Below, piece by piece: positions 2,468 to 60,728 of a stretch of 64,000 nucleotides of DNA (positions are counted from its first letter, which is position 1; every line of letters begins with the position of its first letter). The stretch is from contig CAWHVD010000001.1 of NCBI GenBank assembly GCA_963832835.1, positions 1,160,536 through 1,224,535 on the forward strand, written 5' to 3'. The position numbers and the translations under genes are program-made. The DNA is from an uncultured Chlamydiales bacterium (GTDB lineage Bacteria > Chlamydiota > Chlamydiia > Chlamydiales > JAAKFR01). The notes beneath the pieces were generated by a model. That model did no database searches and was not told the origin of the DNA. It saw nothing but the letters and a program-made list of their open reading frames with translations.

Positions 2468-3638
2468 AGCAAAAAGTCCTTCTGAAGATACCCAAAGAAA
2501 AAAACGGAATTTTTGGCTCCTCGTATTAGCAGCAGCTTTTTTATGTGCAGCTCTGATTGGGTTAATCTATTGGGTATTTATCGGCAGATTCTATGTATAC
2601 ACCGAAGATGCGTACACAAATGGCAACGCTGTCATGCTGACTCCTCAAGTCTCTGCAGGTGTCAAAGCCATTTATGCCGATGAAACCGACCTTGTGCATC
2701 AAGGTCAACTCGTTGTCGAGTTGGACCCTAGCGATTTTGAGCTGCGGTTTGAGGAATCAAAAAAGGAGCTGGCAGTTACTGTCCGAAAAGTAGCAGGAAT
2801 GTTCCAGGAAGTGGAGGCCAAGCAAGCTCAAATTATTTTGAAAAAGGCACAGTTGCGGCAGGCAGAGCTCGACCTAAACCACCGGGATCCTCTGGTAAAA
2901 ACCGGAGCGGTTTCAGTGGAAGAGTACGAAACCTACCAAACCAGTGTAGTTGTTGCAGCTGCGGCTGTGGACTTTGCTGAGAAAGAGCACGAATCTGTCA
3001 AAGCGTTAGTGGCAGGCACAACAGTTGCCACTCACCCGCTTGTGCAGCAGGCTGTATGGAACTTAAGGCAGACGTACTTAAATTTAATCCGTTGTCAAAT
3101 GTGGGCTCCTGTAACCGGTTATATCGCCAAACGCACAGTCCAGGTTGGAGATCAAGTTGTTGCTGGAACCACCCTTCTTTATATTGTCCCCCTCGATCAA
3201 ATCTGGGTAGAGGCCAATTATAAAGAAACAGCACTTAAAGATGTGCGCAAAGGGCAAGAGGTCAGCTTTACCGCCGATCTTTATGGAGATAGTTTCACCT
3301 ACCATGGCAGGGTTTTGGGTTTTCAGCCTGGAAGTGGAAATGCTTTTTCTCTTTTGCCACCCGAGAATGCTTCGGGCAACTGGATTAAAATCGTACAACG
3401 GATCCCTGTTCGGATCAGCATCGATCCACAGGAGCTACTCCAAAGACCTCTTTTTCTAGGGCTTTCTATGAGGGTAACAATCGATGTCCATGAAACAGAA
3501 GGGCACATGATGGCCCAAATACCTACCTTTTCTCCTCTGTACACAACTTCAATTTATGGCAGGCAACTGGAGCAAATGGTCGCCATAGATCCACTCATTG
3601 CCGATGTCATTGCCAATAATACCATTTATCAAAAATAA
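2448..3638 (+). CDS. HlyD/EmrA-family membrane fusion (periplasmic adaptor) protein
   Basis: It has a single N-terminal TM (FWLLVLAAAFLCAALIGLIYWVFIG), an EmrA-like YTNGN motif, a coiled-coil hairpin and a beta-barrel C-terminal part. The ATG at 2448 overlaps the upstream gene end. The last 4 codons and the stop lie inside a MITE. Confidence 0.8.
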   Translation: MTTPPSEAKSPSEDTQRKKRNFWLLVLAAAFLCAALIGLIYWVFIGRFYVYTEDAYTNGNAVMLTPQVSAGVKAIYADETDLVHQGQLVVELDPSDFELRFEESKKELAVTVRKVAGMFQEVEAKQAQIILKKAQLRQAELDLNHRDPLVKTGAVSVEEYETYQTSVVVAAAAVDFAEKEHESVKALVAGTTVATHPLVQQAVWNLRQTYLNLIRCQMWAPVTGYIAKRTVQVGDQVVAGTTLLYIVPLDQIWVEANYKETALKDVRKGQEVSFTADLYGDSFTYHGRVLGFQPGSGNAFSLLPPENASGNWIKIVQRIPVRISIDPQELLQRPLFLGLSMRVTIDVHETEGHMMAQIPTFSPLYTTSIYGRQLEQMVAIDPLIADVIANNTIYQK

Positions 3639-3779
3639 ACCATGAAGTGGCACTGTATAACACGCCATTTTTGAACGATCCTTTCTCGCTTAGGTGCAAA
3701 AACATAGGCTTCGAAACGATCTTTCAAATCTAGCATGTTACCCAGTGCCACTTCATGGCTTTGTTTTTGATAAATGGTA
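3620..3779 (-). mobile_element. MITE copy A (160 bp, sub-family with TTTATCAAAAATAAA termini)
   Basis: Terminal inverted repeats are TACCATTTATCAAAAATAAA...TTTGTTTTTGATAAATGGTA. It is flanked by TAA at 3617-3619 and 3780-3782. The interior matches the other copies. Confidence 0.9.
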
Positions 3780-3912
3780 TAACACCTACTCTCCTTAAAT
3801 CGACTCTTGATAGATGAAATTATTTCTATAGACTTCTGTTAAAACACCCAGCTCAATTGATTAAAATCAGCCGGTCGCAGATAATGGCGGGCCTAGGCAG
3901 GTGTTTCACTAT

Positions 3913-4332
3913 ATGCATCAAGAGCTCATTCAATTAGGTTCTATCATCAAGAAAAGACGCGAAGAGAGAGGTATCTCTTTGAAAGAGGTGGAAAATGCCA
4001 CATCGATCCGCTTTGGCTATTTGCAGGCTATCGAAGAAGGGCATTTAGGCAAGCTGATCTCTCCCATCTATGCACAGGGATTTATTTCGAAGTATGCTCT
4101 ATTTTTGGAGTTGGATCCGGAACAACTTCTCCATGATCATCCTTATGTCATGAAAGTTTTGAACGAAAAATATTCTGAGTCTCAAGATTTTACATTGGGA
4201 ATCGGAACCCTCGAAGTGCGGGGTTCTCCTGGTGGGGAGGTAAAATGGTTGCCGAATCTCATGTGGGTAGGCGCATCGGTCATGACCATCTTGGTGGGTT
4301 GGTTTTTAGCTCGCTATATCGGTATTTTCTAA
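3913..4332 (+). CDS. rodZ: RodZ-like cytoskeleton protein (XRE-type HTH plus one C-terminal TM)
   Basis: The HTH_25-like N-terminus reads LGSIIKKRREERGISLKEVENATSIRFGYLQAIEEG. The C-terminal membrane anchor is WVGASVMTILVGWFLARYIG. The short form resembles chlamydial RodZ. The ATG at 3913 is preferred over the GTG at 3901. Confidence 0.6.
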   Translation: MHQELIQLGSIIKKRREERGISLKEVENATSIRFGYLQAIEEGHLGKLISPIYAQGFISKYALFLELDPEQLLHDHPYVMKVLNEKYSESQDFTLGIGTLEVRGSPGGEVKWLPNLMWVGASVMTILVGWFLARYIGIF

Positions 4333-4335
4333 GTC

Positions 4336-5163
4336 ATGAAATTGCGCCTCTACCTGATCGGTCTGGTCATGGGGATCGCCGATTTGATGCCTGGGATTTC
4401 GGGAGGAACGATCGCCTTCATCTCAGGTATCTACGAAGAACTGCTTGAAAGTATTAAAACTCTTCAATTTCAGTCTTTTAAGAAGATTGCATGGCCGTTT
4501 CTCCTCCCTCTGGGTGGAGGAATCATCACTGCAATCCTTTTGTTTTCGAAATGGATATATTTCCTACTACAGAATTACCCCGCCCCACTTTTTGGCTTTC
4601 TTTTTGGTTTGATTGCTGCCTCTACTCTTCTTTATGCACGCAGCGCAGAGCTGAAACGACCCCAGAATTGGGTAGCACTTGTTATCGGTATTGCTGTGTC
4701 ATATGGGCTGACAATTCTCCCTTGCCAGCAACTTTTTGAGACCCATTTTCTCTGGATACTGTTGGCAGGCATGTTGGGTGTAGGGGGAATGCTCTTGCCC
4801 GGCGTTTCAGGAAGCTACATTCTTCAAATTATTGGAGTTTATCCCCTTGTGATCAGCGCACTCAATTGCCCTTCTGCGCCAGGCTCTTTGAAGCTGCTTG
4901 TCGCGATGGGTGTAGGTATTGCTTTAGGATTTATTGTTTTTTCGAGGGGGATCAGCTTTTTACTTACTCATTGTCGTGGTATCACTACAGCGGGTCTTGT
5001 GGGGTTTATGGCAGGGGGCGTGAAAACTCTCTGGCCATTTGGAATGGGAGCTATTCTATGGCCCTCCATGTGTGTCTGTGCTGGATTTGTGGTGATTATT
5101 GCATTGGAAGTGAGTATGAAACGTGTGCGTAGCGGACCTAATGTCTTCGATTCAGAAACCTAA
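4336..5163 (+). CDS. DUF368-family polytopic membrane protein (undecaprenyl-phosphate translocase-like)
   Basis: It shows the internally duplicated signature GIADLMPGISGGTIAF / GGMLLPGVSGSYIL and about 8 hydrophobic segments. Confidence 0.75.
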   Translation: MKLRLYLIGLVMGIADLMPGISGGTIAFISGIYEELLESIKTLQFQSFKKIAWPFLLPLGGGIITAILLFSKWIYFLLQNYPAPLFGFLFGLIAASTLLYARSAELKRPQNWVALVIGIAVSYGLTILPCQQLFETHFLWILLAGMLGVGGMLLPGVSGSYILQIIGVYPLVISALNCPSAPGSLKLLVAMGVGIALGFIVFSRGISFLLTHCRGITTAGLVGFMAGGVKTLWPFGMGAILWPSMCVCAGFVVIIALEVSMKRVRSGPNVFDSET

Positions 5164-5227
5164 TCTTCTCTCTGTTTAGACTTTAGATTTTTTTAGCCAG
5201 CAGTTCTGTATTACTATTAGCCTTGTC

Positions 5228-5312
5228 GCAGCCCTACAGGCTGCATAGCACGTTATTCCATTGATACCCAGGGCGTTGCCCTGGGCTATTACTGTCTCAG
5301 CCCTTTGGGCTG
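5228..5312. other. cluster of three short GC-rich hairpins
   Basis: Hairpin 1: GCAGCC-ctaca-GGCTGC (5228-5244). Hairpin 2: CCCAGGGC-gtt-GCCCTGGG (5267-5285). Hairpin 3: CAGCCC-ttt-GGGCTG (5298-5312). The cluster lies downstream of the DUF368 gene. Confidence 0.5.
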
Positions 5313-5361
5313 AATACCGGGGGACTTTGTAGACGGAAGCCCCTGCATACTCATGCTCTTA

Positions 5362-5441
5362 TACCAAATATCACAAATAATTTGCATTTAGGGGGGAGCT
5401 TTCGCTGCCGCCTAAATGCAAATTATTTGTGATATTTGGTA
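5362..5441. mobile_element. 80-bp perfect-palindrome element (second MITE-like type)
   Basis: The 31-bp arms TACCAAATATCACAAATAATTTGCATTTAGG (5362-5392) and its exact reverse complement (5411-5441) enclose an 18-nt loop. It starts with the same TACCA as the main MITE. It is flanked by TTA (5359-5361) and TGA (5442-5444). Confidence 0.55.
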
Positions 5442-5760
5442 TGACTTGTAGAAACTAAAAAACTTGTATCAGTAACAGCGTTTGACATCCTTACTCCTTA
5501 TTTTGTAAAGTAATATGATAACATATCATTAATTATTAACTAATTATTAAGATGTTAAACTTTGCTTTATTGTAATTTTAAAGATTTTATAAATGGCTGG
5601 TGAAAAGGGAGGAAGGAGGGCCTTTGGACTTAAGTTTTTTTTAGAGCATCTATCTCCGTATCAATAGGAAGCATTTTGGCCCAAGATGCGGTGTTTCAAT
5701 CTAATCATCCTTTTCTATAAAATAAAAACAGATCATTTTATTTATAATAGTATATTTTTT

Positions 5761-7830
5761 ATGGCCCATCCCCTTTACACCAATCGCCTCATCCATGAAA
5801 AATCGCCCTACTTGCTTCAGCATGCCCATAATCCTGTGGACTGGTACCCTTGGTCTGAAGAGGCTTTCCTAGCAGCAAAAGATCAAGATAAGCCTATTTT
5901 TCTCTCCATTGGTTATGCGACGTGCCACTGGTGTCATGTGATGGAATCCGAATCCTTTCAGAGCCTCGAAGTGGCTCAGCTCATGAATGAAACGTTCATC
6001 AACATCAAGGTGGATCGTGAAGAAAAACCAGAGATTGACAGCTTGTATATGGAGTTTGCGCAGGCAATGATGTCGGGGGGAGCAGGGTGGCCTTTGAATC
6101 TGATTTTGACACCCGATCTTCTGCCTTTCTTTGCATCGACTTACTTACCAGCAGATGCTCACCGAGGATTTTTAGGGGTAAAACAATTGGTTCTTCGGAT
6201 CCGCCAGATATGGAATACACCCGAAGAAAGAGAGGACGTGGTCACTCAAGCGGGGAAAATTGTGGATGTTTTTGCCGATTATGTCCACATCGAGGGTAAA
6301 GAGTTGCCTCATGTTGAACAGGTCAAGGAGGCTGCTGAGCTCTTGTATAAAACGGCCGATCCTATCTATGGAGGGACTAAGGGGTCTCCCAAATTTCCAG
6401 TCGGATTTCAAGCCTGTTTCTTGCTTCGTGTGGTTAAAAAGTCCCCCGATAGCCGCGCTCTATTTTATGTCGAGCGCTCCCTAAGCATGATGCATCGAGG
6501 AGGAATTTACGACCATTTGGGTGGTGGTTTTTCACGCTACAGTGTCGATGAAAGGTGGCTTGTTCCCCATTTTGAGAAGATGCTCTATGACAATGCCATT
6601 TTAGCGCGCACCTATCTAGAAACATGGGAATATACCCGTCAGGATTTTTACCGGGAAGTTGCTGAGGAGATCATGGATTATATTCTCAGAGATATGACTG
6701 GACCTCAAGGAGGCTTTTACTCGGCTGAGGATGCTGATTCTGAAGGGCATGAAGGTAAATTTTATCTATGGTCTTGGGATGAAGTACACCTTGCGTTGGG
6801 TAAAGATGCATCCCTTTTTTGCGAATACTACGGGATCACTCCAACGGGAAATTTTGAAGGACGTTCCATCCTGCATTTACGCCAAAGCCATGAGGAATTT
6901 GCTGCACAGAGACATCTCGATCCTGTTGTATTGAAGCAATCGTTGAAGGAGACGCGCCATAAATTGTGGGAAGTACGTGAGGAAAGAGTGCACCCCTTCA
7001 AAGATGATAAAGTGCTTTCTGCTTGGAATGGTTTAATGATTTATGCCTTAGCCGAAGCCGGGCGGGTTTTAGGTAAAGATGAGTATTTAGACGCTGCCGA
7101 AAGGGCGGCCACATTTATTCGTGATCAATTATGGAAAGAGGGGAGTCTGCTACGTCGCTGGAGAGAAGGAGATGCAAGGTTCGAGGGGTGTCTTGATGAT
7201 TATGCCTTTATGATTCAAGGTCTTCTTTCTTTGTTTGAAGCTGATAGAGGCTCTGGGTGGCTTGAGTTTGCCCTCACCCTTACCCATACACTAAAGTCCG
7301 ATTTCAAAGCAGAACATGGCGCGTTTTACCTAACTAACGGGAAAGACCCCAACCTGATTTTGCGCCGCTCTGAATTTTACGATGGTGCTGAGCCCTCTGG
7401 TAATGCAATCCATACTGAGAACCTGATTCGCCTCTATCAAATTACAGGTGTTGAGGAGTATATCAATGAGGCCGCCGATATCTTGAAAGCCGCTAAAGAA
7501 CACATCGACCTCTATCCACCTGGGGCGTGCTATCATTTGATGGCCCTTCTGCGCTTTTTGGACCTAAAAGCGCCCACAGTTGTGGTTGCTCTCAATGAGC
7601 AAGAAGAATTCAAAGAAGAGATCACCGCGCTCTTATCCGGCCATTTTATGCCTCACAAAACAGTGATTTGGAAGAGGGAATCAGACGAGGAGCTACGCGA
7701 CCTGGTCCCCACCGCCCGCAATAAGTCCCCGGTCGAGGGCAAAACCACTCTCTATATCTGCTACCGTGACAAGTGCGACGAGCCCATCACCGACGTCAAC
7801 AAAATGCGCGAAGCTATCGAAAAATTATAA
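5761..7830 (+). CDS. thioredoxin-domain protein of the DUF255/YyaL (SSP411-like) family
   Basis: The N-terminal thioredoxin-like fold carries [13 protein letters not shown] long (alpha/alpha)6 N-acylglucosamine-epimerase-like region follows. The ATG at 5761 ([10 protein letters not shown]) is preferred over the upstream ORF start. Confidence 0.8.
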
Positions 7831-7927
7831 TTTCTTTTGTGCCCGCCAGGGGGCATATGCCTCTTTTTCTCCTAACAGGAAAAAGCCCCTGCACGTTATC
7901 CTTTATCCTCTAGGAATCTGAGGGATA

Positions 7928-8980
7928 ATGTTCATGAAATCAAAGTTTTTGCTTGTCTGTTTGGGGATCATTTCAACTGTGGGTGCAGCGCCTCCCTCGA
8001 TGGACTTTAATTCCAGCTTAAGTTTTGACCAAAACTATCCTGAAGACATTGTCATCAATAACCGTGTTCTACTCAAATTCAATGGTAAAACGATCACTGT
8101 GATGGATGTAGTCCGTAAAATGGATCTCCTTTTTTATAGGCAGTATGAGAACCTCGCTTCTTCTGCCGTAGCTCGCTATCAGTTCTACCATTCAGGATGG
8201 CGCACCGTACTCGGCATGGTCATCGACGACTATTTGATTATGGCTGATGCTGAAGAGAAACAGGTGAAGGTAAATGATGGCGAGGTGCGCGAAGAGCTCG
8301 AACAGTTATTTGGGCCAAATGTCGTACTCAATCTCGATAAGCTGGGTATGACTCTGGAAGAAGCCTTTGCTTTAATTAAAACAGAGCTGACCGTGCAACG
8401 GATGACTTCCATGATGGTCCGTAGCAAAGCAATGAGCGATGTTTATCCGCTTTCTGTGAAAAAAAGATACGAAAAAATGGTCGCAGAGAACCCTATACAA
8501 GATGTTTGGGTATACCGTGTTCTGTCTGTGCGAGGCCCCGGGCATGAACATGTGGCGCAAGAGGCGCATCGTTTGATCAAAGATGTCGGAGTCCCAGTTG
8601 AAGAGGTGATTGCGAAGCTTAAAACAGAAAATGTGGAACTGACATTTTCAGATGCTTACCATCAAAAAGAAAAAGAGCTTTCCGTAGCTTATCGCGCTGT
8701 TTTAGGAACATTGGCAGCAGGAGAAGCTCCCAGTGCTTCTGTATCGGCTCCCATCTCAAATAAGACCGTGAGCCGCCTGTTTTGTTTAAAGGGGATCGAA
8801 AAAGAGGAGTCTCGTACATTTAATGCCATGGCAGAAGAGCTCAAAAAAGAGCTTACTGTGCAAGCGATGGAGAAACATAATACAGAGTATCGTACAAAGC
8901 TGCGCAAACACTATGGCATGACCGAAAAATACCTGAGCCATATTATCCCAAGCGATCTTCAGCCCTTTGCCATGCGCTAA
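7928..8980 (+). CDS. secreted SurA-like chaperone (SurA N-terminal domain, degenerate PPIase region)
   Basis: The signal peptide is MKSKFLLVCLGIISTVGAAP. The N-terminal INNRVLLKFNGKTITVMDV pattern is typical of SurA_N proteins. Confidence 0.5.
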   Translation: MFMKSKFLLVCLGIISTVGAAPPSMDFNSSLSFDQNYPEDIVINNRVLLKFNGKTITVMDVVRKMDLLFYRQYENLASSAVARYQFYHSGWRTVLGMVIDDYLIMADAEEKQVKVNDGEVREELEQLFGPNVVLNLDKLGMTLEEAFALIKTELTVQRMTSMMVRSKAMSDVYPLSVKKRYEKMVAENPIQDVWVYRVLSVRGPGHEHVAQEAHRLIKDVGVPVEEVIAKLKTENVELTFSDAYHQKEKELSVAYRAVLGTLAAGEAPSASVSAPISNKTVSRLFCLKGIEKEESRTFNAMAEELKKELTVQAMEKHNTEYRTKLRKHYGMTEKYLSHIIPSDLQPFAMR

Positions 8981-9157
8981 GGGCTCGTAAAGAAATAACT
9001 TCCGCATTTGGACTCTGCGAGACAAAGCTCAATCGAAGCGAGCGTAGCTCGCATCCGAGCGAGGAGCACCATTCCCAAATCGGGAAGGGCGAGAAGGAGG
9101 ATCGATTGGGCGAAGTCGTAGCCAGTCCAAATGCAGAAGTTATTTTTTTACGAGCCC
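8981..9157. repeat. 177-bp imperfect palindromic intergenic element
   Basis: The left arm GGGCTCGTAAAGAAATAACTTCCGCATTTGGACT (8981-9014) pairs with the right arm AGTCCAAATGCAGAAGTTATTTTTTTACGAGCCC (9124-9157). Inner segments are also partly self-complementary. Confidence 0.6.
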
Positions 9158-9164
9158 TAAAGAG

Positions 9165-47184: not shown

Positions 47185-47283
47185 CCTTTTCCCAACGTGC
47201 TTTTCGCAAAAGATTATTATAGTGAATATTAAGGTACTACGTCAATTTGTATTCATATTTTCAGTTGGATAGAGATTGAAACA

Positions 47284-47315
47284 CAGAGGCACTGAGAAGC
47301 AGAGGCACTGAGAAG
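47284..47315. repeat. 16-bp exact tandem duplication CAGAGGCACTGAGAAG x2
   Basis: Units lie at 47284-47299 and 47300-47315, about 100 nt upstream of the CBS-protein gene. Confidence 0.8.
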
Positions 47316-47363
47316 AATTTATACCAATCCGCAAAAATAACACTGCAAATTAGGGCTGTCTAA

Positions 47364-47524
47364 TACCATTTCCAAAAAATAAAGTCACAAATTGGCACTG
47401 TATAACACGCCATTTTTGAACGATCCTTTCTCGCTTAGGTGCAAAAACATAGGCTTCGAAACGACCATCCAAATCTGTCATGTTACCCAGCGCCACTTCA
47501 TGGCTTTATTTTCCGGAAATGGTA
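47364..47524 (-). mobile_element. MITE copy E (161 bp)
   Basis: It has full TIRs and is flanked by TAA (47361-47363) and TCA (47525-47527). Its right end supplies the last codons and the stop of dus. Confidence 0.9.
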
Positions 47525-48498: not shown

Positions 48499-48606
48499 GC
48501 AAACAGGATACTACAGGACAAGATTAGCCGGTAGAACAGAGCTCGCCCAACTGCGGGAACTTTCACGTAGTTTGAGATGCGGAAATTATTCCTTGATGAG
48601 TCCTTA

Positions 48607-48767
48607 TACCATTTCCAGAAAATAAAGTTACAAATTGGCACTGTATAACACGCTATTTTTGAACGATCCTTTTTCGCTTAGGTGCAAAAACATAGGCTTC
48701 GAAACGATCATCCAAATCTGTCATGTTACCCAGCACCACTTCATGACTTTATTTTCTGGAAATGGTA
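48607..48767 (-). mobile_element. MITE copy F (161 bp)
   Basis: It has full TIRs and TTA duplications at 48604-48606 and 48768-48770. The right one is the TAA stop codon of the DUF2147 gene on the minus strand. Confidence 0.9.
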
Positions 48768-49277
48768 TTAGTGGATAGAGGCTGGAGTGAGTTGATACAA
48801 ATCGAGTTTTTGAAACCGAGTATTGAAGTTCTGCTCGGGAAAGGGGAAAAGCACTTCATTCTTACCGAACATCATGAACTCACCGCGGAGCACCAGATTT
48901 TCTCTCTCAACCCAGAGTTTAGCAGAGTAGACTTTACCGCTACGTGGATCGACTACATGTCCCTTGGCAGGCTCTCGACCTGACGCTGGAGATACCCAGA
49001 TAATATCCAGGCCGCAATAATAAGGCTGCCCCTGAATGCCTGTTGCTCGGCTCCGTGGCTGATAAATCGTTTCGTCTAAATTACCTTGTTTATCGAAATT
49101 CGCCACAATTTTGCCGTAAATTTTTCCCTGGTAGGGATAAACCGCAACGACTGAAGTGGGTAAATGCGTTTGATTATCAACTGTTTGCCAAAAACCATAG
49201 AGGTTGTTGGCGCAAACACTTGAATAAGAGCAAACAAAAATCGCAAATGTCAAATACAATAATTTAAAATAAGACAT
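48768..49277 (-). CDS. DUF2147-domain secreted protein
   Basis: It has a signal peptide. GFWQTVDN...GKIYGKIV...DPRSGKVYSAKLWVERENLVLRG is typical of DUF2147. Confidence 0.7.
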   Translation of the reverse strand: MSYFKLLYLTFAIFVCSYSSVCANNLYGFWQTVDNQTHLPTSVVAVYPYQGKIYGKIVANFDKQGNLDETIYQPRSRATGIQGQPYYCGLDIIWVSPASGREPAKGHVVDPRSGKVYSAKLWVERENLVLRGEFMMFGKNEVLFPFPEQNFNTRFQKLDLYQLTPASIH

Positions 49278-49445
49278 GGTTTGGTTATATTTTGTTTCAA
49301 AACCTGTCGCTTGTCAATAATTATTTATTATAAAAATGAGATTTTATGATCTTTTTGACTACTCGAGAGAACTTTGGGTTGGTGAAAATGTAAGAATCAA
49401 TTATAAGTGTTTAAAAGTAAGATAAAATGAGCGAAAGAGGTTAAG

Positions 49446-50618: not shown

Positions 50619-50624
50619 GCGCCC

Positions 50625-50885
50625 ATGACGCATTGGGAAGTGTATATGATCCGCAGTTCATCGGGTAAGCTTTATACAGGCATTACAAATCATCTGGAAC
50701 GACGCTTCTCAGAGCACCAAAAAGGTGCCCGGGGAGCTCGTTTTTTTTACTTCTCCAAGGCAGAGGCAATTGTATTTCGCGAGACTCATCCAGACCGCTC
50801 TTCAGCCTCTCGTCGCGAAAGCGCCATCAAAAAAATGTCTCGAGCGGAAAAATTGTTACTCATTCAGTCCATATTAGATAAATGA
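50625..50885 (+). CDS. GIY-YIG nuclease-family protein (UPF0213/YhbQ-like)
   Basis: VYMIRSSSGKLYTGITNHLERRFSEHQ carries the GIY-YIG signature. It is 86 aa long. Confidence 0.8.
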   Translation: MTHWEVYMIRSSSGKLYTGITNHLERRFSEHQKGARGARFFYFSKAEAIVFRETHPDRSSASRRESAIKKMSRAEKLLLIQSILDK

Positions 50886-51205
50886 AACAGGAGTGGCTTT
50901 TTCCTGCCTCAATTCTCGATATACCAACCATTGGAGTGGCAAAATCGATTTTGGTGGGTGCTGCCACAGAAGATCTGCCCGATGAGCCTGGTAGCCACAT
51001 CCCTCTTATATGGAAAGGGGAAAAGATCGCTGCTGTGGTGCGTACTAAAAGAAAATGTGCCCCTCTAATCATTTCTGCGGGTCATCGGATTACTCTTAAG
51101 ACGGCTGTTTCCTTAATTTTAAGTTGTCTTAGAGGCTATCGTTTGACAGAACCTACCCGTTTAGCTCATCTTGCCTCTAATGAGATTCGGATCTCCCATA
51201 AATAA
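50882..51205 (+). pseudogene. nfi: 5'-truncated endonuclease V (C-terminal half only)
   Basis: DIPTIGVAKSILVG...LIISAGHRITLKTAV...GYRLTEPTRLAH aligns to the second half of Nfi. The N-terminal ~110-120 aa, which carry the catalytic acidic residues, are absent. Confidence 0.65.
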
Positions 51206-51350
51206 GAGATCCTAGCGCAAAGAATGAGCGTACATTGGTCGGATTCTTCAATGTTGGTTAAGACTCTCTAATTAAAATTATTTTTGATGCTGTATTAAAT
51301 ATATAATAATTGTATAAAACATGTTTTAACAAAAAAAAATATGAGCATTT

Positions 51351-53210: not shown

Positions 53211-53236
53211 TGTGCAAAATTGGGAGATTATGATTC

Positions 53237-53665
53237 TCACAACGCCTTTCGTAAAAAGAACATTTTTGCGCCCTTTTCAAAACCTTCTCGTGTAAATTCG
53301 ATGCTGTATCCCAGATTCTGGTAGAAGGGCAATGCTTGCCAATCCATCGTGTTCACAGTTGCAAAAGAACAACCCCTATCTCTTCCGATCATTTCTGCTT
53401 GCCTCATCAATAGGGTTCCCCATCCCTGCCCTCTCAAATGCGGTTCAATCCACAGCATATCGACGTAAAGGTTACCAAAGAGACTAACCCCGGTAGCCCC
53501 TCCTCCAATGACTTTACGGTCATGGTTTCTAAGCTCTACTGAAAATGGCTTGATAGGTTGCATCTTCTTCAGCAAATCAGCCTGCACATTAATACCATCA
53601 AACAACAGTTTTTCCAATTCAGGATCGATCGAATCATGAGAAATGAGTGCATAATCACTGGTCAT
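53237..53665 (-). CDS. GNAT-family N-acetyltransferase
   Basis: The acetyl-CoA motif is LRGQGWGTLLMRQAE. The start is taken at MTSDYAL (CAT at 53663-53665). The longer ORF runs into MITE copy G. Confidence 0.8.
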   Translation of the reverse strand: MTSDYALISHDSIDPELEKLLFDGINVQADLLKKMQPIKPFSVELRNHDRKVIGGGATGVSLFGNLYVDMLWIEPHLRGQGWGTLLMRQAEMIGRDRGCSFATVNTMDWQALPFYQNLGYSIEFTREGFEKGAKMFFLRKAL

Positions 53666-53688
53666 CTTGCCTCCTTTAGAACATCTAA

Positions 53689-53848
53689 TACATTTCCAGA
53701 AAATAAAGTCACAAATTGGCACTGTATAACACGCCATTTTTGAACGATCCTTTCTCGCTTAGGTGCAAAAACATAGGATTCGAAACGATCATCCAAATCT
53801 GTCATGTTACCCAGTACCACTTCATGGCTTTACTTTCTGGAAATGGTA
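53689..53848 (-). mobile_element. MITE copy G (160 bp)
   Basis: It has TIRs (the left TIR lacks one C) and TAA duplications at 53686-53688 and 53849-53851. It lies 23 bp upstream of the GNAT start codon. Confidence 0.9.
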
Positions 53849-53988
53849 TAATTGAAGATACCCAGTAGCATACCTGTTATAGTACTCTCCTGGCATCTAA
53901 AAAGTTTTCCTTAAAAATGGGGTTTGTTGGTGCTGCACTTTTGGCTGGCAAAGATTTAAAAACTATTGCATAGGCATCAATAGATAGG

Positions 53989-55404
53989 GTGCTAGTGCAA
54001 ATAATGAAAAAGTATCTTTGCGATCAGATGTGTGCGCAATTAGGTCGATGGTTGCGGGCAGCAGGATATGATACGGTTATCATAGATACTCCTTTAAAGG
54101 ATCAAGATATCCTTAAAAAGTCTATTGCAGAAAAACGACTTCTCCTCACACGGGATAGATATTTTAATGAAATGGATCCAGAAGGAAAAACAGTCATCTA
54201 TTTACACGGTGAATTTCTTGATGATTGGGTAGAACAGTTAGGGGAAGAAGGTGTTGATTGGTTATTTTGTCCTTTTACAAGGTGCCTTCGATGCAATGCC
54301 CTATTTGAAAAAAATCATGCTCCCGTTGATTTACTCGCTCAGATTCCTGAGGGAACAAAAGAGTTTTGGTTTTGTGCCAACTGCAAACAATTCTTTTGGT
54401 TGGGATCTCATACAGAGAGAATGGAAAGTCAACTCAAAGAATGGAATGATAAAACATATTTGACAATTGGTCTTGGAGGTGACCTTATGATAGGCCGCCT
54501 TGTCGATGACTATTTAGATAACGCACCTCCTTCCTACGTCTGGGGAAACTTATTGCCGGTCCTTTTGAATACAGATTTTAATCTTGTCAATTTGGAAACC
54601 ACTTTAACATGTAGTGAGAAAATTCTTCCTAAAATATTCAATTTTAAAGCCAGTCCAAACAAAATTGCAGTGCTTACAGAAGGGGCCATCCACGCTGTGA
54701 ATGTGGCCAATAATCATATTCTCGATTTTTCAGAGGAGGGGCTTCTTGAGACACTTCAAGTGCTCGATCGAGCAAAAATCCTTCATGTAGGGGCGGGCAT
54801 TGATCTAAAAGAGGCAAAAGCTCCTAGTATCATTGAAAAAAAAGGGATCAAAATAGGTTTTTTGGGATGTACGGATAACGAGCCTTCTTGGAAAGCTTCG
54901 GCATCGCATCCAGGAACCTATTTTGTAGAAGTTGGTAATCTTGAATCATTGCACAATGAGATCATCAAACTACGCAAGCAAGTAGATCTTCTGATATTGT
55001 CTATCCATTGGGGACCGAATATGCGTAAAAAACCAATGCCCTATTTTCGCGCCTTTGCCCATGAATTAATGAATCTCGGAGTGGATATTCTGCACGGTCA
55101 TAGTGCACATGTTTTTCAAGGAGTTGAGATTTATAAAGGAAAATTGATCCTTTATGATACAGGAGATTTAGTTGATGATTATGCAATCGATCCTCTCCTA
55201 CGCAATGACAGGTCATTCTTCTTTGTTGTAAAAGCAAACAAAAAAAAACTGATTTTATTGAAGATGATCCCAACACTCATCTCCCATTTTCAAGTAAATA
55301 TTTCTAAGGACAATGAACACCTGGCTGAAATGGAAGCACTGTGCAAAGAATTGAAGACCTACCCAATGCGCAAAGAGCACACTCTGAGTTTGGATTTATC
55401 TTGA
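53989..55404 (+). CDS. fusion protein: Mut7-C (DUF82) RNase-like domain plus CapA/PGA_cap metallophosphatase-like domain
   Basis: The N-terminal LCDQMCAQLGRWLRAAGYDT plus the zinc ribbon CLRCN...CANCKQFFWLGSH match Mut7-C. The C-terminal GGDLMIGR, NLETTLT, VANNHILDF, SIHWGPN and GHSAHVFQG match the CapA family. Confidence 0.7.
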   Translation: MLVQIMKKYLCDQMCAQLGRWLRAAGYDTVIIDTPLKDQDILKKSIAEKRLLLTRDRYFNEMDPEGKTVIYLHGEFLDDWVEQLGEEGVDWLFCPFTRCLRCNALFEKNHAPVDLLAQIPEGTKEFWFCANCKQFFWLGSHTERMESQLKEWNDKTYLTIGLGGDLMIGRLVDDYLDNAPPSYVWGNLLPVLLNTDFNLVNLETTLTCSEKILPKIFNFKASPNKIAVLTEGAIHAVNVANNHILDFSEEGLLETLQVLDRAKILHVGAGIDLKEAKAPSIIEKKGIKIGFLGCTDNEPSWKASASHPGTYFVEVGNLESLHNEIIKLRKQVDLLILSIHWGPNMRKKPMPYFRAFAHELMNLGVDILHGHSAHVFQGVEIYKGKLILYDTGDLVDDYAIDPLLRNDRSFFFVVKANKKKLILLKMIPTLISHFQVNISKDNEHLAEMEALCKELKTYPMRKEHTLSLDLS

Positions 55405-55498
55405 AGTGGAAGGACGCATTCAGAACTTTTGATTGGGAAAAATTTAAAAGTCATTTAAATTGAATGGTTGAAGAATCCGAAAATAAAAGGGTAGTATC

Positions 55499-55936
55499 AT
55501 GGCGATTATAGAAAAAATAAATGAGGGGATCAAGGAAGCAATAAGAAGCCGAGATCAGATTAGGCTCTCTACATTGCGTATGCTCAAATCAAAAATATTA
55601 GTCGTGGATGCACGTGCCAATCTTCCCGATGCAGAAGTCATAAAACTATTCAAAACGTATTTCGGCAGCCTTCAAGAAGCTCTTGAGCAGGCGCAGGATC
55701 TGAATCGTCCTGATATCGCCGAGCCCTTGAAAAAGGAACTTGTGATCATTCAAGAGTTTTTACCTAAAGCTCTTTCTTCCGAAGAAACTAAGCAAATTGT
55801 TGTCCAAGCTATTTCAGAATCAGGAGCTAAGACAAAAAAAGATTTAGGATTGGTCATGAAAGCCGTCATGAAATTGAATAGTGCTGTTGATGGAAAGTTA
55901 GCCAAAGATTTAGCTAGTGAATTGCTAACAGATTGA
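55499..55936 (+). CDS. GatB/YqeY-domain protein
   Basis: INEGIKEAIRSRDQIRLSTLRMLKS...GLVMKAVM is typical of the YqeY family. Confidence 0.85.
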   Translation: MAIIEKINEGIKEAIRSRDQIRLSTLRMLKSKILVVDARANLPDAEVIKLFKTYFGSLQEALEQAQDLNRPDIAEPLKKELVIIQEFLPKALSSEETKQIVVQAISESGAKTKKDLGLVMKAVMKLNSAVDGKLAKDLASELLTD

Positions 55937-55956
55937 TGATACCAAATCATAAATAA

Positions 55957-56117
55957 TACCATTTATCAAAAATAAAGCCATGAAGTGGCACTGTATAACA
56001 CGCCATTTTTGAACGATCCTTTCTCGCTTAGGTGCAAAAACATAGGCTTCGAAATGATCCTTCAAATCTATCATGTTACCCAGTGCCACTTCATGGCTTT
56101 ATTTTTGATAAATGGTA
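55957..56117 (-). mobile_element. MITE copy H (161 bp, same sub-family as copy A)
   Basis: The TIRs carry TTTATCAAAAATAAAG. TAA duplications lie at 55954-55956 and 56118-56120. Confidence 0.9.
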
Positions 56118-56346
56118 TAACTTTGGATTTTTCTTGAAAAGCATCGATCATAAATCGATCAGGTGAGCAAACCGCTATCCACAAATCTTTTTTGCCACAA
56201 GATAAATTAATTTTGACAGATATTATCCAACCACAGTAAACTGCGGTCTTAATATTATTTTTTTGATGGTGTCATCAGTTGAATCGCAATTGGTGGAGCT
56301 ATTCAGCCAAAATAGATAAAAACAGAAGGGATGAAATGAGAAGTCT

Positions 56347-57219
56347 ATGAAATTTTCTTTATCAAAATTAGCTTTGAAAGTTTTCCAATTCGTAATTGGA
56401 ATAGGTGCGTCAACACCTCTTTTTTCTAACCCCTGCCGTCCATTCGACGGGTTTTACACAGGCGCCATGGGAGGGTTTTTACAATCGGCAACCGAATTCA
56501 CTACAGAGAGCAGCGCTCAACATGAAAACTTTTTCCACGAACCTGGTCTTATCTCCTCTAGGCAAAAAGATGCGAAAGTGTATCGCTGTCATGGAGAAGG
56601 AGCTCTCAATTTCGGCTACGGCCAACAAATTAGAAAATGCATGTTCCTTGCAGGAGAGATCTTCTTAAGTTGGGCCAACCGCGATACGTTGATAAGGAAT
56701 TTTGCATACACCGAGCAAGGATTCCCTGATCAATTAGGTAGTTTCAACGCATCCTTAACATCCAAAACTTTCGCTTCAATGCGAACAACTGAATTTGCTA
56801 TCGATTTGCGTCCCGGATTCATCTTTGATTGTCGTACGCTATTGTTCGGCCGTATCGGTGTCGGCTTAAATAAGTTGCGCACAAGACACACGGTGGACTT
56901 CGAATATTTCAGCGATGCTATTGAAGAACATTCAATCGACAGCCTTTCCGCGGCCAAAAAAGACTATAAAGCAGTGCTAAGGTTGGGTGTAGGGGGTGAA
57001 TGGAAAATCTGTTCTAATTTGAGTCTTACTTCAGATTACATTTTTTCCTATTACGGAAGAAGCAAAACACACAAGATCGGCGATTCGACTTTTGCAAACG
57101 GCGAAGACGATAACGTGATCCCAAATGGCTTCAAGATATCTTCTTCAGCAAGAACATGTACTCAAGCATTCATGATCGGCATCAAGTATTACTTCAATAA
57201 AGCCAATCGTAGTCGCTGA
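56347..57219 (+). CDS. outer-membrane beta-barrel protein (OmpA-like/OMP_b-brl family, Cys-containing)
   Basis: It has a signal peptide and FDGFYTGAMGG at the start of the barrel. Amphipathic strands alternate. The terminal strand IGIKYYF is followed by a short tail. Eight Cys residues are present. Confidence 0.7.
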   Translation: MKFSLSKLALKVFQFVIGIGASTPLFSNPCRPFDGFYTGAMGGFLQSATEFTTESSAQHENFFHEPGLISSRQKDAKVYRCHGEGALNFGYGQQIRKCMFLAGEIFLSWANRDTLIRNFAYTEQGFPDQLGSFNASLTSKTFASMRTTEFAIDLRPGFIFDCRTLLFGRIGVGLNKLRTRHTVDFEYFSDAIEEHSIDSLSAAKKDYKAVLRLGVGGEWKICSNLSLTSDYIFSYYGRSKTHKIGDSTFANGEDDNVIPNGFKISSSARTCTQAFMIGIKYYFNKANRSR

Positions 57220-57232
57220 GAAAATATGCCAC

Positions 57233-57275
57233 AACGAAGCTAGCCGAAATTCGGCTAGCTTCCGTTGTCTTTCTA
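57233..57275 (+). terminator. rho-independent terminator after the OMP gene
   Basis: A 13-bp perfect stem GAAGCTAGCCGAA/TTCGGCTAGCTTC is extended by CAAC/GTTG, then TCTTTCT. Confidence 0.65.
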
Positions 57276-57300
57276 TTAACCTGTATGAATCCGGTAAAAT

Positions 57301-58116
57301 ATGGAGCATTGGGACAATCAAGCCCGGCAGTGGGCATTGGTCGGAGAACCATTAAAGCCTTCACAGGCAGAACTCCAGAATTCCTATTCCTGGATTCATG
57401 AACATGCGCAGCTTCAGAATGATTATTTAACCGCATTGGTTCTGGGCGTTACACCGGAGATCATCAACCTCTCTTGGCCCGCTCAAACCAGACTAATAGC
57501 GGTCGATTACAATGAGACAATGATCAAATCTGTCTTGCCTAAAAAAACTGCGACTCTTGCTCCCATCGGATTATTGGCAAATTGGTTGCAGCTTCCGCTG
57601 CCATCCTCCTCAGTCGACATCGTCATCGGAGATGGGTGCTACAGCCAAGTTCGTTGGAAAGATTACGAAGCGCTTACACAGGAAATTCGGCGGGTTTTGA
57701 AGCCGAATGGTATCTTTATTATCCGTTTTTTTACCAAACCAGAAAACATTGATCCCGTCGAGTCCATTTACCGCGATGTGTTCTCAGGAGAGATCGCAAG
57801 CTTTCACGCTTTCAAATTCCGTCTTGCAATTGCCCTGCAATCTGATCCTCGTCAAGGTGTGTGTTTAAAAGACATCTGGAGCACTTGGGATTCGAGTTTC
57901 AAACAAGAGGTTCTGCAGAATATGCAGAAATTAAAATGGAATCTTGAAACAATCAGCACTATCGATATCTACCGTCTCTCAAACACTATTTATACGTTCC
58001 CCACACAAATTGAGATCAGATCCATCTTTTCCAAGCATTTACTTGAAAAGGAGTTACATATACCTTGTTATTATTTCGGTCAGTGTTACCCAACCTTCAA
58101 ACTCTCAAAAATATAA
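57301..58116 (+). CDS. class I SAM-dependent methyltransferase (271 aa)
   Basis: The order of Rossmann-like motifs is ALVLGVTPE, LIAVDYN, VDIVIGDGCY and LKPNGIFIIRF. The stop overlaps the start of the next gene (TAATG). Confidence 0.6.
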   Translation: MEHWDNQARQWALVGEPLKPSQAELQNSYSWIHEHAQLQNDYLTALVLGVTPEIINLSWPAQTRLIAVDYNETMIKSVLPKKTATLAPIGLLANWLQLPLPSSSVDIVIGDGCYSQVRWKDYEALTQEIRRVLKPNGIFIIRFFTKPENIDPVESIYRDVFSGEIASFHAFKFRLAIALQSDPRQGVCLKDIWSTWDSSFKQEVLQNMQKLKWNLETISTIDIYRLSNTIYTFPTQIEIRSIFSKHLLEKELHIPCYYFGQCYPTFKLSKI

Positions 58117-60080
58117 TGGAAAATTCAAGCGACATAAAATCTTATACTCTACTTACTTTGGTTGACAGGCCTTGCGTTTATCAGGGATACATCAAAGGAT
58201 TCCGTCAACCCATCGGATGTTTAAGTCTGCAAGTCCAATCTTTTCAACTATCTCATGTTGAGCCTTTGCAAAAATTTTTGGAGGTGTATTTTAACAGATA
58301 TTTCCTTCACTGCAATCCAATTCGTTTCCCTAAAGATCTGATTGCATGTTTAGGAGAAGCGATCATCGCAATTCAACAAGCTGCCGGGCTCCCGATTTTT
58401 GAACCGATCCGTATCGAAGCACTACCCGAAGAAGATCACGCCTTCAAGCTTTGGATCCCTTGTTTACAGGAAGAGTGCTTTCATCAAGTAGTAGCTTTCA
58501 TGCTGCAATTTTTCTTGCATCATCTTGCCGCCCCCTTTTCTTCCTACCAAATCGAGATCTCCGACGAGATCGTAGAGTTGATAAACAGTTTAAAAAGTTT
58601 TGCCCCGAAGGGGCTGAACAGCTTACGGATATTGGAGATTGCCCATCAGCATGAAATTCCTTGGCATCACCTGGCTCAAAATACGTTCCAGTTAGGGTAC
58701 GGCTGCCATTCCCGATGGTTTGACAGCACACTGACTGACAAAACCCCCCAAGTTGCAACCTCGATAGCTAGAAACAAATATAGTACCGCGAAATTCCTTA
58801 AAAAAATGGGAATTCCAGTTCCCCGGCAGGAAGTCGTTCAGTGCGAGGCAGAGGCTGTGGAAAAGGCATGGGAGCTGGGGTATCCCGTTGTGATCAAGCC
58901 CCTCAACGAAGACGGGGGTAGGGGTGTTAGCGCAGGACTGATGACAGACGAACAGGTCAAAAAAGCCTTTGCTGCGGCTCAGCAGTATTCTGAGATTGTC
59001 CTCTTGGAACAGCACATCGTCGGCAAAGATTACCGTTTGCTGGTGTTTAACGGGACATTAGTGTGGGCAATTGAAAGGATCCCTGCCGGAGTAAAAGGCG
59101 ACGGAGTGAGCACCATCAACCAGTTGATTGATCAAACCAATCGAACGCGCGTGCCACACACCGCTCAAACGCCGACACTCAAGCCCATCGCGGTCGATGT
59201 GGACACGCATGAATTCCTGTCGGATCAAGGATACACCATCAATAGCATCCCGGAAAAGGGCCGATTTGTCCAGTTAAGCCGGATCTCTAATATCAGTTCG
59301 GGAGGAATTCCAGTGCCGGTCTTTGACGAGGTGCATCCTGATAACAAACGCTTGGCGGAAACAGCAGCAGATTTATTAAAGCTAGATATTGCCGGCATCG
59401 ATCTCATCATGCCCGATATTCGGCAATCCTACCTTACAACTGGGGGGACAGTCATCGAAATCAATGCTCAGCCTCAGATCGGCACAGTTACAGCAGCGCA
59501 TATGTACCCTCTCATTTTGAAGATGTTTATCCCTAATCGAGGCCGCATTCCTATCATTGTGATCTGCAGCGATAAGGCAGAAGGCACGATGATCCTGAAA
59601 TTACATTCTTATCTATCTCGCCGTTATAAGAAGATAGGGTGGGCGAGCAATTCAACGGCATATATCAATAAAAAGAGGATGCATACTGCTTCTTCATTAT
59701 ATCAAGCTGCTCAAACGCTATTAATTAACCAAACAGTTGATGCGATGATCTACAGCATTCAAAAGATGGACGACATCAAGCATGAAGGACTCCCTTTTGA
59801 TCAATTCAATTGTTTGATTTTTCTTGGAATGCCGCAATCGTTGAATCATCAAAACTGCGATGAGCAATGCGACATCGTCCAGACTCTTTTTTCCGCTTGC
59901 CAGGGAGATCGGCTTGTCAATGATCCTTCATTTTATGATTTGATCAATAGGGATGCTCCCTTAGCTCCCCCTCAGCTTTTGACCGGAGAAGAGATTGAAG
60001 ATAAAATCGAAGATGGACTCCTTCTGCTAGAAGAAGATTCAAAACTGTTTTTGTGCCGTGAGGCACTCAAAAGTTACTGA
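58116..60080 (+). CDS. cyanophycin-synthetase-like ATP-grasp enzyme lacking the Mur-ligase domain
   Basis: The central region KFLKKMGIPVP...YPVVIKPLNEDGGRGV...HIVGKDYRLLVFNGTLVWAIERIPAGVKGDGVSTINQLID resembles the CphA ATP-grasp (G) domain and its preceding N domain. No Mur-ligase P-loop region follows. Confidence 0.65.
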   Translation: MENSSDIKSYTLLTLVDRPCVYQGYIKGFRQPIGCLSLQVQSFQLSHVEPLQKFLEVYFNRYFLHCNPIRFPKDLIACLGEAIIAIQQAAGLPIFEPIRIEALPEEDHAFKLWIPCLQEECFHQVVAFMLQFFLHHLAAPFSSYQIEISDEIVELINSLKSFAPKGLNSLRILEIAHQHEIPWHHLAQNTFQLGYGCHSRWFDSTLTDKTPQVATSIARNKYSTAKFLKKMGIPVPRQEVVQCEAEAVEKAWELGYPVVIKPLNEDGGRGVSAGLMTDEQVKKAFAAAQQYSEIVLLEQHIVGKDYRLLVFNGTLVWAIERIPAGVKGDGVSTINQLIDQTNRTRVPHTAQTPTLKPIAVDVDTHEFLSDQGYTINSIPEKGRFVQLSRISNISSGGIPVPVFDEVHPDNKRLAETAADLLKLDIAGIDLIMPDIRQSYLTTGGTVIEINAQPQIGTVTAAHMYPLILKMFIPNRGRIPIIVICSDKAEGTMILKLHSYLSRRYKKIGWASNSTAYINKKRMHTASSLYQAAQTLLINQTVDAMIYSIQKMDDIKHEGLPFDQFNCLIFLGMPQSLNHQNCDEQCDIVQTLFSACQGDRLVNDPSFYDLINRDAPLAPPQLLTGEEIEDKIEDGLLLLEEDSKLFLCREALKSY

Positions 60081-60227
60081 AAAATATCCCAGGCATGATT
60101 GAGTGGTACCTATCACCTTTTCATTCAAAAGGGCTACCCAGTAATTACCTTATCATCGCTCTATAGAGCCTCAACTTTTTATACTGCTGATGTTGGCTTC
60201 GTTTGCATCGGTATCAGCAGCGCTTTA

Positions 60228-60388
60228 TACTACTTCCAGAAAATAAAGCCATGAAGTGGTACTGGGTAACATGACAGATTTGGATGATCATTTCGAATCC
60301 TATGTTTTTGCATCTAAGAGAGAAAGGATCGTTCAAAAATGGCGTTTTATACAGTGCCAATTTGTGACTTTATTTTCTGGAGATGGTA
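60228..60388 (+). mobile_element. MITE copy I (161 bp, most diverged TIRs)
   Basis: The ends are TACTACTTCCAGAAAATAAAG...CTTTATTTTCTGGAGATGGTA. TTA duplications lie at 60225-60227 and 60389-60391. Confidence 0.85.
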
Positions 60389-60728
60389 TTATCCTAAAAA
60401 CGGCAGTTGGAGCGCTTATTTTAAAGAAATGCAGGCGTATTTTTTACTTGAGCTCCTTTTATTCTTAAATTATTGAAAATTAAAGCGTTGGTAAGGGGTG
60501 GTTTTTTGTTAGCGGATTTTTGATCGATCATTTCTTGTGTGGTCACTTTTTCGAGGAGGTATTAGGCTACTTTCTTTTTTTTGAGTTAACGGCTTTTTTA
60601 TCAATAATAAATATATGGATTATACTTAAAAAATTAACTATAATCGTAAACATGGCACTATTCAGTTAGTTAGTTATTTAATAAGTGCTGTAAAACAATA
60701 AATCACTTGAAAGAGTGAGGAGGGTTTT

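Follow-up and report, generated by a model that had tools for sequence, protein, structure and literature searches.

The window analyzed here, that is, the whole 64-kb stretch of the 2,585,090-bp contig CAWHVD010000001.1 from an uncultured Chlamydiales bacterium, has a gene content that suits an environmental chlamydia (RNase HIII, futalosine-pathway genes and Rsm22, with Chlam_OMP genes in relatives), and the best matches of its Dxs and Dus proteins are Chlamydiota and Parachlamydiaceae sequences. The window also holds nine full-length copies (160–161 bp) of one palindromic element, together with one truncated nested copy and one remnant of 41 bp (Table 1). We consider this element to be a MITE (miniature inverted-repeat transposable element) that is derived from, and mobilized in trans by, an IS630-family insertion sequence (IS) of a clade with TACC...GGTA ends and a 3-nt T-N-A stagger, a reading to which we assign a probability of roughly 0.78.

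Structure and sub-families of the element

The full-length copies were located by extraction with their flanks, by repeat finding and by a profile search, which returned no additional copies in the 64-kb window. A preliminary description of this DNA had listed ten copies, and all of its coordinates are correct; the second of the two copies placed at 38884–39126 is, however, a truncated inner copy of 79 bp and not a full one, and the divergent remnant of 41 bp at 47322–47362 had been missed. The 21-nt terminal repeat, TACCATTTCCAGAAAATAAAG, has 15 matches at three or fewer mismatches, as compared to an expectation of 0 from 100 shuffles of the sequence. The terminal inverted repeats are perfect over 21 bp, and each copy can fold into one long hairpin, with RNA folding energies of −77 and −66 kcal mol–1 on the two strands (z of about −12 and −11, respectively) and a DNA folding energy of −34.7 kcal mol–1 (z = −7.9), such that both the terminal repeats and the hairpin potential described previously are confirmed for each copy by repeat search and folding. 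The copies are closely alike, as had been stated, but their divergence of ~3–13 substitutions is somewhat above the "few" that had been claimed: identity is 92–97% inside sub-family 1 and 84–90% across sub-families, values that leave recent mobility a reasonable suggestion for copies that are not near-identical. Taken as a whole, the element is short (less than ~300 bp), multi-copy and noncoding, has terminal inverted repeats and a target duplication, and shows evidence of movement, as in the generic definition of a MITE.

An internal open reading frame (ORF) of 40 codons was rejected as a genuine peptide, since the changes among copies are mostly non-synonymous and include one stop and one frameshift. 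The translated MITE frames matched no Pfam family or transposase model, and the impression that one of them was similar to the C-terminus of an IS5-type transposase was dropped on this basis. Rfam and tRNA scans gave no match either, and there is no consensus promoter or terminator within the copies scanned, for which reason a promoter or terminator function was set aside.

At least four terminus types of the element are known from the window and from contigs of relatives (Table 1; comparison loci are referred to as L001 and so forth). The second sub-family that had been proposed for the copies at 3620 and 55957 stands, its change being mirrored in both terminal repeats, and the copy at position 8703 of L011 is a chimera, with the left end of sub-family 2 and the right end of sub-family 3. 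When sub-family 1 is set against sub-family 3, both arms are altered at 11 of the first 25 positions, 10 of which still form Watson–Crick pairs, and the interior changes are mostly one-sided; over the entire hairpin, two-sided changes affect 20 pairs, as compared to 7.4 ± 1.8 in shuffles. Such covariation of the arms is expected where both ends must bind the same transposase, and the pattern fits two ends that are constrained to match a single DNA-binding protein. The difference between −77 and −66 kcal mol–1 had raised the question of strand-specific RNA selection, which we reject because wobble-type mismatches are balanced between the strands (~7 versus 6). The central ~40 nt are the part of the element most conserved across sub-families.

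Related sequences extend beyond the copies themselves. Positions 18315–18599 of L011 comprise a sub-family 3 left terminus (46 nt, with a TTA flank) followed by unrelated AT-rich DNA ending in ...GCGCATGGTA TT at the edge of the locus, and may be a related 285-bp element whose interior differs. In addition, short spurious ORFs that are 45–73% identical to the open frame of the element (proteins P0258–P0274, with variant ends …LFPGFGI, …FLPGIGI and …LFSGIGI) are found in many other assemblies, and thus a wider superfamily of related elements exists.

Target-site duplication and mobility

Flank extraction reproduced the 3-bp direct repeats of the preliminary description, with TAA on both sides at six window copies, TTA on both sides at two and a one-base mismatch at the remaining two. 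Identical TAA or TTA triplets therefore flank eight of the ten window copies, and 11 of 14 once the five complete copies on related contigs are added to the window set for the tally; as TAA and TTA each make up only ~1.5% of the trinucleotides in the window, this identity does not arise by chance. The length of the duplication can be read from the nested copy, whose empty site (the consensus of the other copies) is CACTGTA-TAA-CACGCC and whose filled site is CACTGTA-TAA-[TAC...GGTA]-TAA-CACGCC. When duplication lengths of 2–5 bp were tried on this copy, only 3 bp yielded symmetric TAC...GTA ends, and a TA duplication with CC...GG ends would demand another empty site. Moreover, direct flank pairs (TAA/TAA or TTA/TTA) outnumber palindromic ones (TAA/TTA) by 11 to 2, from which it follows that the middle base belongs to the duplication and not to a palindromic target. 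The nested copy and the flank statistics together rule out 2-bp TA, 4-bp and 5-bp duplications as well as an asymmetric element of 162 bp, and thus the MITE departs from the canonical 2-bp TA duplication of IS630/Tc1-mariner elements.

We note that at two sites, 38881–38883/39127–39129 of the window and 8852–8854/9016–9018 of L016, the triplet on one side faces its reverse complement on the other (TTA/TAA or TAA/TTA). Inversion via recombination between oppositely oriented copies would give exactly such TTA/TAA flanks, and no partner copy was identified.

Movement of the element, as suggested previously, is evident both within the window and from comparison with relatives. Besides the nested insertion at 38926, the copy at 47364 is inserted in an older remnant element, at the internal TTA/TAA position also used by the nested copy in its own host. 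At the DUF2147/dus junction, the window contains the element, whereas in L011, L012 and L013 (Dus 92–94% identical; bins of ENA ERZ27311206) DUF2147 is followed directly by dus, and the alignment to these loci breaks exactly past the DUF2147 stop codon TAA, where the window copy starts. Conversely, L011 and L013 have a copy that lies ~100 bp downstream of dus, at a position unoccupied in the window, and L012 has no copy. Further copies occur in relatives at L011 8703, L014 9958, L015 1003 and L016 8855, with TTA/TTA or TAA/TAA flanks at those in L014, L015 and L011. No copy is present in ~44 kb around dxs in three relatives (L008–L010), and at the dxs site the intergenic DNA of a 94% relative is too diverged for an empty-site alignment. 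Short-read contigs also break at the element, with L001 and L013 ending in the terminal repeat and L015 and L017 beginning inside a copy. The preliminary description had named two findings that would speak against it, namely copies without the T-W-A duplication, or orthologous loci that are all filled and would mark an ancient structural repeat; the triplets flanking 11 of 14 copies and the empty DUF2147/dus junctions of L011, L012 and L013 contradict both, and the element is therefore a mobile repeat, as the nested insertion and the differently placed copies in relatives also establish. The nested copy and the flanks bear out the earlier view of a miniature transposon that is nonautonomous, has terminal inverted repeats and duplicates a 3-bp T-W-A target.

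Next to the 48607 copy, between it and the start of dus (window 48500–48606), lie ~85–95 bp that are absent from L011, L012 and L013; this extra DNA might have arrived by a second insertion or be no more than a diverged spacer.

A candidate transposase and the origin of the element

No transposase gene was found in the window when all main ORFs were scanned with Pfam or NCBIfam, in agreement with the preliminary description, and neither the window nor ~110 kb of related loci contains DDE_Tnp_1 or DDE_Tnp_4 genes (IS5-type, Harbinger-type). Scans of genome- and metagenome-contig collections with a 31-nt degenerate repeat pattern gave chance matches only and no element, the source genome being outside these collections; a viral-contig scan with the conserved core of the element and a blastn search of one copy against plasmids and phages were likewise without a match. 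When the other open frame was searched by HMMER against 1.8 billion proteins, the only matches were short spurious ORFs of related elements plus a single repeat protein hit by chance, with no transposase among them. The relatives do carry an IS481-like gene (helix-turn-helix (HTH) and rve_3 domains; L009 1143–2222) and an IS3-family OrfA at a contig end (L016 12740–13024), both of which were rejected as partners because neither has ends or a context that match the MITE.

The internal 40-codon ORF is non-conserved as coding sequence yet annotated by gene callers, and a search made with it yielded 16 small ORFs, from the source genome and from ENA and JGI assemblies. One of these, P0256, diverges beyond the center of the element, and its contig is L017, a metagenome contig of 912 nt from JGI 3300025538, Ga0210132_1020856. 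Position 4 of the terminal repeat is the first base of this contig, which is ~97% identical to sub-family 1 across ~103 nt, with the similarity fading by about nt 112, and its MITE part has the same orientation as the window copy at 38083–38243. Beyond the MITE part, L017 continues with a GC-rich hairpin and ORF1 (HTH_23/28/29/32/33; NCBIfam transpos_IS630, E = 1e-21), and downstream of ORF1 with an A7 slippery run and ORF2, a partial DDE_3 match (profile positions 2–35).

A tblastn search of L017 ORF1 against plasmids matched 139 records, and among the 25 matches listed, each annotated feature is an IS630-family transposase or its winged-helix ORF. We delimited seven homologous plasmid IS, from five bacterial orders (loci L018–L024, Table 1), all of which start with TACC, finish with GGTA and are flanked by identical T-N-A triplets. 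Excising the IS plus one triplet from an interrupted IS6 transposase gene restores profile positions 1–202 (258 bits, NCBIfam), whereas under a 2-bp TA model the match is limited to positions 30–202 (209 bits); similarly, excision of IS and one triplet from a TauD gene gives a continuous reading frame, which the TA model breaks. Because these two genes are restored only under the 3-bp model, the duplication made by the homologous IS is 3 bp. The left repeat of the Moraxella IS, TACCAAACCCAGAAAATATAG, agrees with the sub-family 1 terminus of the MITE at 17 of 21 positions, and the window remnant agrees to the same extent (17/21) with the Vibrio and Photobacterium right repeats. In five of six homologues that were checked, the stop of ORF2 lies 13–15 nt short of the IS end, and the C-termini follow the pattern ...CSRxWxxL(TS) up to the stop; near the right end of the MITE, the same direction gives ...QKWRVIQ in sub-family 1 and ...CRRWRII in sub-family 3, a likeness that is only suggestive.

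These observations suggest an anatomy for the MITE that rests on one partial contig (L017). The left ~105 nt of each 161-bp copy would correspond to the left end of an IS630-family element, comprising terminal repeat and leader hairpin, the right ~56 nt would be the opposite terminal repeat of the same IS, and the transposase gene between the two ends would have been deleted; such a fusion of a left with a right end would also account for the imperfect palindrome that spans the whole element. An IS630-type DDE transposase would then bind the terminal inverted repeats (~21–45 bp, beginning TACC) and move the noncoding element in trans, through excision and insertion at a T-W-A triplet with a 3-nt stagger, after which gap repair would duplicate the triplet. 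Mobilization in trans, as proposed here, is described for bacterial MITEs (review PMC3184786). The cognate IS would bear TACCATTTCCAG-type termini, and we infer that it would be present in this genome and mobilize these copies.

A number of points weigh against this interpretation. The link to a transposase is a single metagenome contig of 912 nt on which one end is visible and the right end unseen, and its leader, counted from the visible end as far as the probable start of ORF1, measures ~245 nt as compared to 33–78 nt in the seven homologues, that is, ~170–215 nt longer. Given the single end and the unusually long leader, L017 may instead represent a truncated MITE with an unrelated IS630 copy downstream of it, in which case the end of that copy might lie at a weak ACCATT motif around nt 138. 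A MITE profile search of the seven IS loci was not significant, with the likeness confined to approximately the terminal 8–21 nt. Within the MITE data themselves, three of the 14 copies have mismatched flanking triplets, and the empty DUF2147/dus site is clean on the left only, with the extra DNA mentioned above at its right. Finally, IS630/Tc1-mariner elements are conventionally described with a TA duplication, with which a 3-bp T-W-A or T-N-A duplication conflicts, and ISEcret5 of Ca. Endozoicomonas cretensis, with an inverted repeat (ATRCCAATYGC) of the same end type, is given as "2 bp (TA)" (PMC6007542). However, even if L017 reflects mere adjacency, the IS630 clade is favored, as the termini and the duplication type of the MITE both match it.

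The preliminary description had instead attributed the element to an IS5 (IS1031-type) or Harbinger-like transposase. Such mobilization by an IS5-family (IS1031, ISL2 or IS427 group) or Harbinger-like DDE enzyme, with the IS630 gene of L017 merely adjoining a truncated copy, now appears quite improbable. A 3-bp T-W-A duplication is an established hallmark of IS5-related and PIF/Harbinger elements, which the MITE shares, and both the single end with its unusually long leader on L017 and the frequency of truncated copies in these genomes are in keeping with such adjacency. The earlier assignment nevertheless lacks support, having been drawn from the duplication type only: no such transposase occurs in the window or the related loci examined, the translated MITE frames lack a Pfam transposase match, and the MITE termini begin with TACC, whereas IS5-family ends begin with G-rich sequences. 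The sole transposase gene joined to the element is of the IS630 family, its seven homologues share TACC...GGTA ends and T-N-A duplications, and the IS630 clade by itself explains both these termini and this duplication. An orphan MITE, the transposase of which was lost from the lineage, leaving immobile relics, with L017 coming from a different organism, is likewise unlikely. It would agree with the lack of a transposase in the 64-kb window and ~110 kb of relatives' contigs, with copies that are 92–97% identical and not identical, and with the truncated or chimeric state of several of them. However, the sampled region is less than 10% of the 2.6-Mb genome, such that the absence of a transposase from it says little, the L017 end at ~97% identity to window sub-family 1 is no more diverged than the copies are among themselves, and the nested insertion and the differing sites among close relatives speak against immobility.

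That the repeat is not a transposon of this kind at all, being either an ancient palindrome with a structural or regulatory role (REP-like, terminator-like or a small RNA) spread by recombination, or an IS200/IS605-type single-strand hairpin element, is largely refuted and barely credible. The very stable single hairpin of each copy, the mostly intergenic placement near gene ends and the conservation of the central ~40 nt across sub-families would all suit it, but precise target duplications, a nested insertion with a known empty site, and empty sites in related genomes would not, and the element has perfect terminal inverted repeats instead of subterminal hairpins. There is, further, no consensus promoter or terminator in the copies examined and no Rfam family match, and the lack of strand bias in the wobble-type mismatches argues against selection at the RNA level.

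Comparison with known systems places the MITE close to IS630-family IS with TACC...GGTA ends. It has the same terminal bases (TACCA...), up to 17/21 identity in the terminal repeat and a 3-bp T-N-A duplication, and a transposase of this type is joined to a MITE end in L017; it differs in being a gene-free element of 161 bp, as compared to IS of 1.07–1.16 kb with two frameshifted ORFs, and in that its 14 copies duplicate TAA or TTA only, whereas the IS copies also duplicate TGA and TCA. RUP (Streptococcus pneumoniae), Correia (Neisseria), ERIC, Nezha and the bacterial MITEs attributed to IS630 resemble the element in size (100–170 bp), terminal inverted repeats, whole-element hairpins, intergenic placement near genes and fusion to ORF ends, but they belong to other phyla and have no sequence similarity to it, and RUP and Correia duplicate TA where the element duplicates a 3-bp T-W-A. 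Tourist-type MITEs, PIF/Harbinger and IS5-family elements share the 3-bp TAA/TTA duplication and the small, palindromic, nonautonomous copies, and differ in their termini and in that the transposase associated with the present element is IS630-type (HTH and DDE_3). PATE, derived from IS200/IS605, has subterminal hairpins and no target duplication, in contrast to the 3-bp duplications and perfect terminal inverted repeats found here. Fot, a eukaryotic element of the pogo superfamily (IS630-Tc1-mariner group), has been reported with TAA and not TA duplications at most copies (PMC7386202), although it is much larger, with a single-ORF pogo-type transposase, and what it has in common with the element is the broad transposase group and the TAA duplication.

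Bacteria are well known to contain MITEs that derive from IS630 or form hairpins (reviews PMC3184786, PMC10969869), and the present one is of a kind already known, with a modest side result on IS630 target duplication. Classical chlamydiae are nearly repeat-free (PMC2878342), and we found no MITE reported in Chlamydiota in the open-access literature; an abundant MITE gives environmental chlamydiae a tangible driver of genomic change, which rewrites gene 3′ ends (Dus, EmrA-like), places very stable hairpins between genes and fragments short-read assemblies (L001, L013, L015, L017). Here, the duplication taken by itself pointed to the wrong transposase family, and the occurrence of T-W-A also in an IS630 clade matters for the classification and annotation of MITEs and IS. 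The 3-bp behavior of the TACC-ended clade, which we encountered in Gammaproteobacteria, Betaproteobacteria, Deinococcota and Chlamydiota, may be under-recognized or mis-annotated as TA, for example in ISEcret5. We tentatively propose, at somewhat less than even odds, that a large and phylogenetically wide IS630 clade with TACC...GGTA ends integrates by a 3-nt stagger at T-N-A and has perhaps been mis-recorded as "TA". Were this to hold, a TWA duplication alone would not be diagnostic of an IS5/Harbinger ("Tourist") origin, and the chlamydial element would be the first MITE family described in Chlamydiota.

Gene neighborhood and other features of the window

Table 1. Copies and terminus types of the element, and homologous plasmid IS of the IS630 family. 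Positions are those of the window.
Feature	Position or length	Strand	Terminus	Flanks and context
MITE copy, sub-family 2, 160 bp	3620..3779	-	TACCATTTATCAAAAA...	TAA at 3617-3619 and 3780-3782
MITE copy, sub-family 1, 161 bp	27456..27616	-		TAA/TAA; between ORF 27036-27344 and ORF 27778-28365
MITE copy, sub-family 1, 161 bp	38083..38243	+		TAA/TAA; divergent region upstream of maf (-) and ORF 38466 (+)
Outer MITE copy, 161 bp after removing insert and one TAA	38884..39126	-		TTA/TAA; end 5 nt from UbiE stop
Inner truncated copy, 79 bp (TAC + right half of element)	38926..39004	-		TAA/TAA; in internal TAA of outer copy
Remnant of divergent copy, 41 bp	47322..47362	.	TACCAATCCGCAAAAATAACACTGC	adjoins 47364 copy
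MITE copy, sub-family 1	47364..47524	-		TAA/TCA, not a clean duplication; supplies Dus 3′ end
MITE copy, sub-family 1	48607..48767	-		TTA/TTA; triplet 48768-48770 is DUF2147 stop codon
MITE copy, sub-family 1, 160 bp	53689..53848	-	left terminus one base short	TAA/TAA; upstream of GNAT gene (-) and ORF 53989 (+)
MITE copy, sub-family 2	55957..56117	-		TAA/TAA; ~20 nt past stop of ORF 55499-55936
MITE copy, sub-family 1, most diverged of the copies	60228..60388	+		TTA/TTA; 148 nt past cyanophycin-synthetase-like gene
Sub-family 1 terminus			TACCATTTCCAGAAAATAAAG	
Sub-family 2 terminus			TACCATTTATCAAAAATAAAG	copies 3620, 55957
Sub-family 3 terminus			TACGGATCCCAATTAAAAACTGC	L016 8855
Window remnant terminus			TACCAATCCGCAAAAATAAC	47322-47362
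IS of Spartinivicinus ruber	1145 bp			TGA/TGA
IS of Polaromonas JS666	1163 bp			TCA/TCA
IS of Moraxella osloensis	1091 bp			TTA/TTA
IS of Photobacterium toruni	1110 bp			TAA/TAA
IS of Acinetobacter johnsonii	1094 bp			TAA/TAA
IS of Vibrio sp. HDW18	1111 bp			TAA/TAA
IS of Thermus thermophilus	about 1077 bp			TGA/TGA

Five copies (3620, 38884–39126, 47364, 48607 and 55957) lie within 25 bp of a gene 3′ end, as the preliminary description had recorded. Its explanation, that TAA stop codons are favored targets, finds weak support, as an actual stop codon is the duplicated triplet at only one of the ten window copies, namely that at 48607, which abuts the stop codon of DUF2147. In two genes the element has replaced the encoded C-terminus together with the stop codon: the 3620 copy provides the EmrA-like gene with its last five codons and stop (...ANN, then TIYQK and stop), and the 47364 copy provides Dus with its last six codons and stop (...STW, then TDTISGK and stop), where the Dus proteins of relatives end in ...STWGMF or ...SAWAK. 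The long hairpins may affect the transcripts in which they sit, and the copies are possible substrates for recombination.

Several further features of the window were noted in passing. ORF 12573–14060 (-), which has no Pfam match and probably encodes a repeat-containing protein, includes a tandem array at 13555–13928 in which a 102-bp unit recurs 3.7 times at 95% identity. The Endonuclease V gene at 50882–51205 is truncated, with 107 aa that match profile positions 113–197 only; L011 and L012 have a full nfi gene of 227 aa preceded by a GIY-YIG gene, which is missing in the window. An AbiEii toxin/AbiEi antitoxin pair (type IV toxin–antitoxin system) is encoded at 15943–17384 (-), and positions 61113–62441 encode a protein of 442 aa in which the ERG4/ERG24 sterol-reductase domain, from a mainly eukaryotic family, is full-length (E = 3e-74). 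The cyanophycin-synthetase-like ATP-grasp gene occupies 58065–60080, and a futalosine-pathway menaquinone cluster (MqnA-like, radical SAM with a CofH_C domain, and UbiE) lies beside a DUF3604 gene at 39132–43781.

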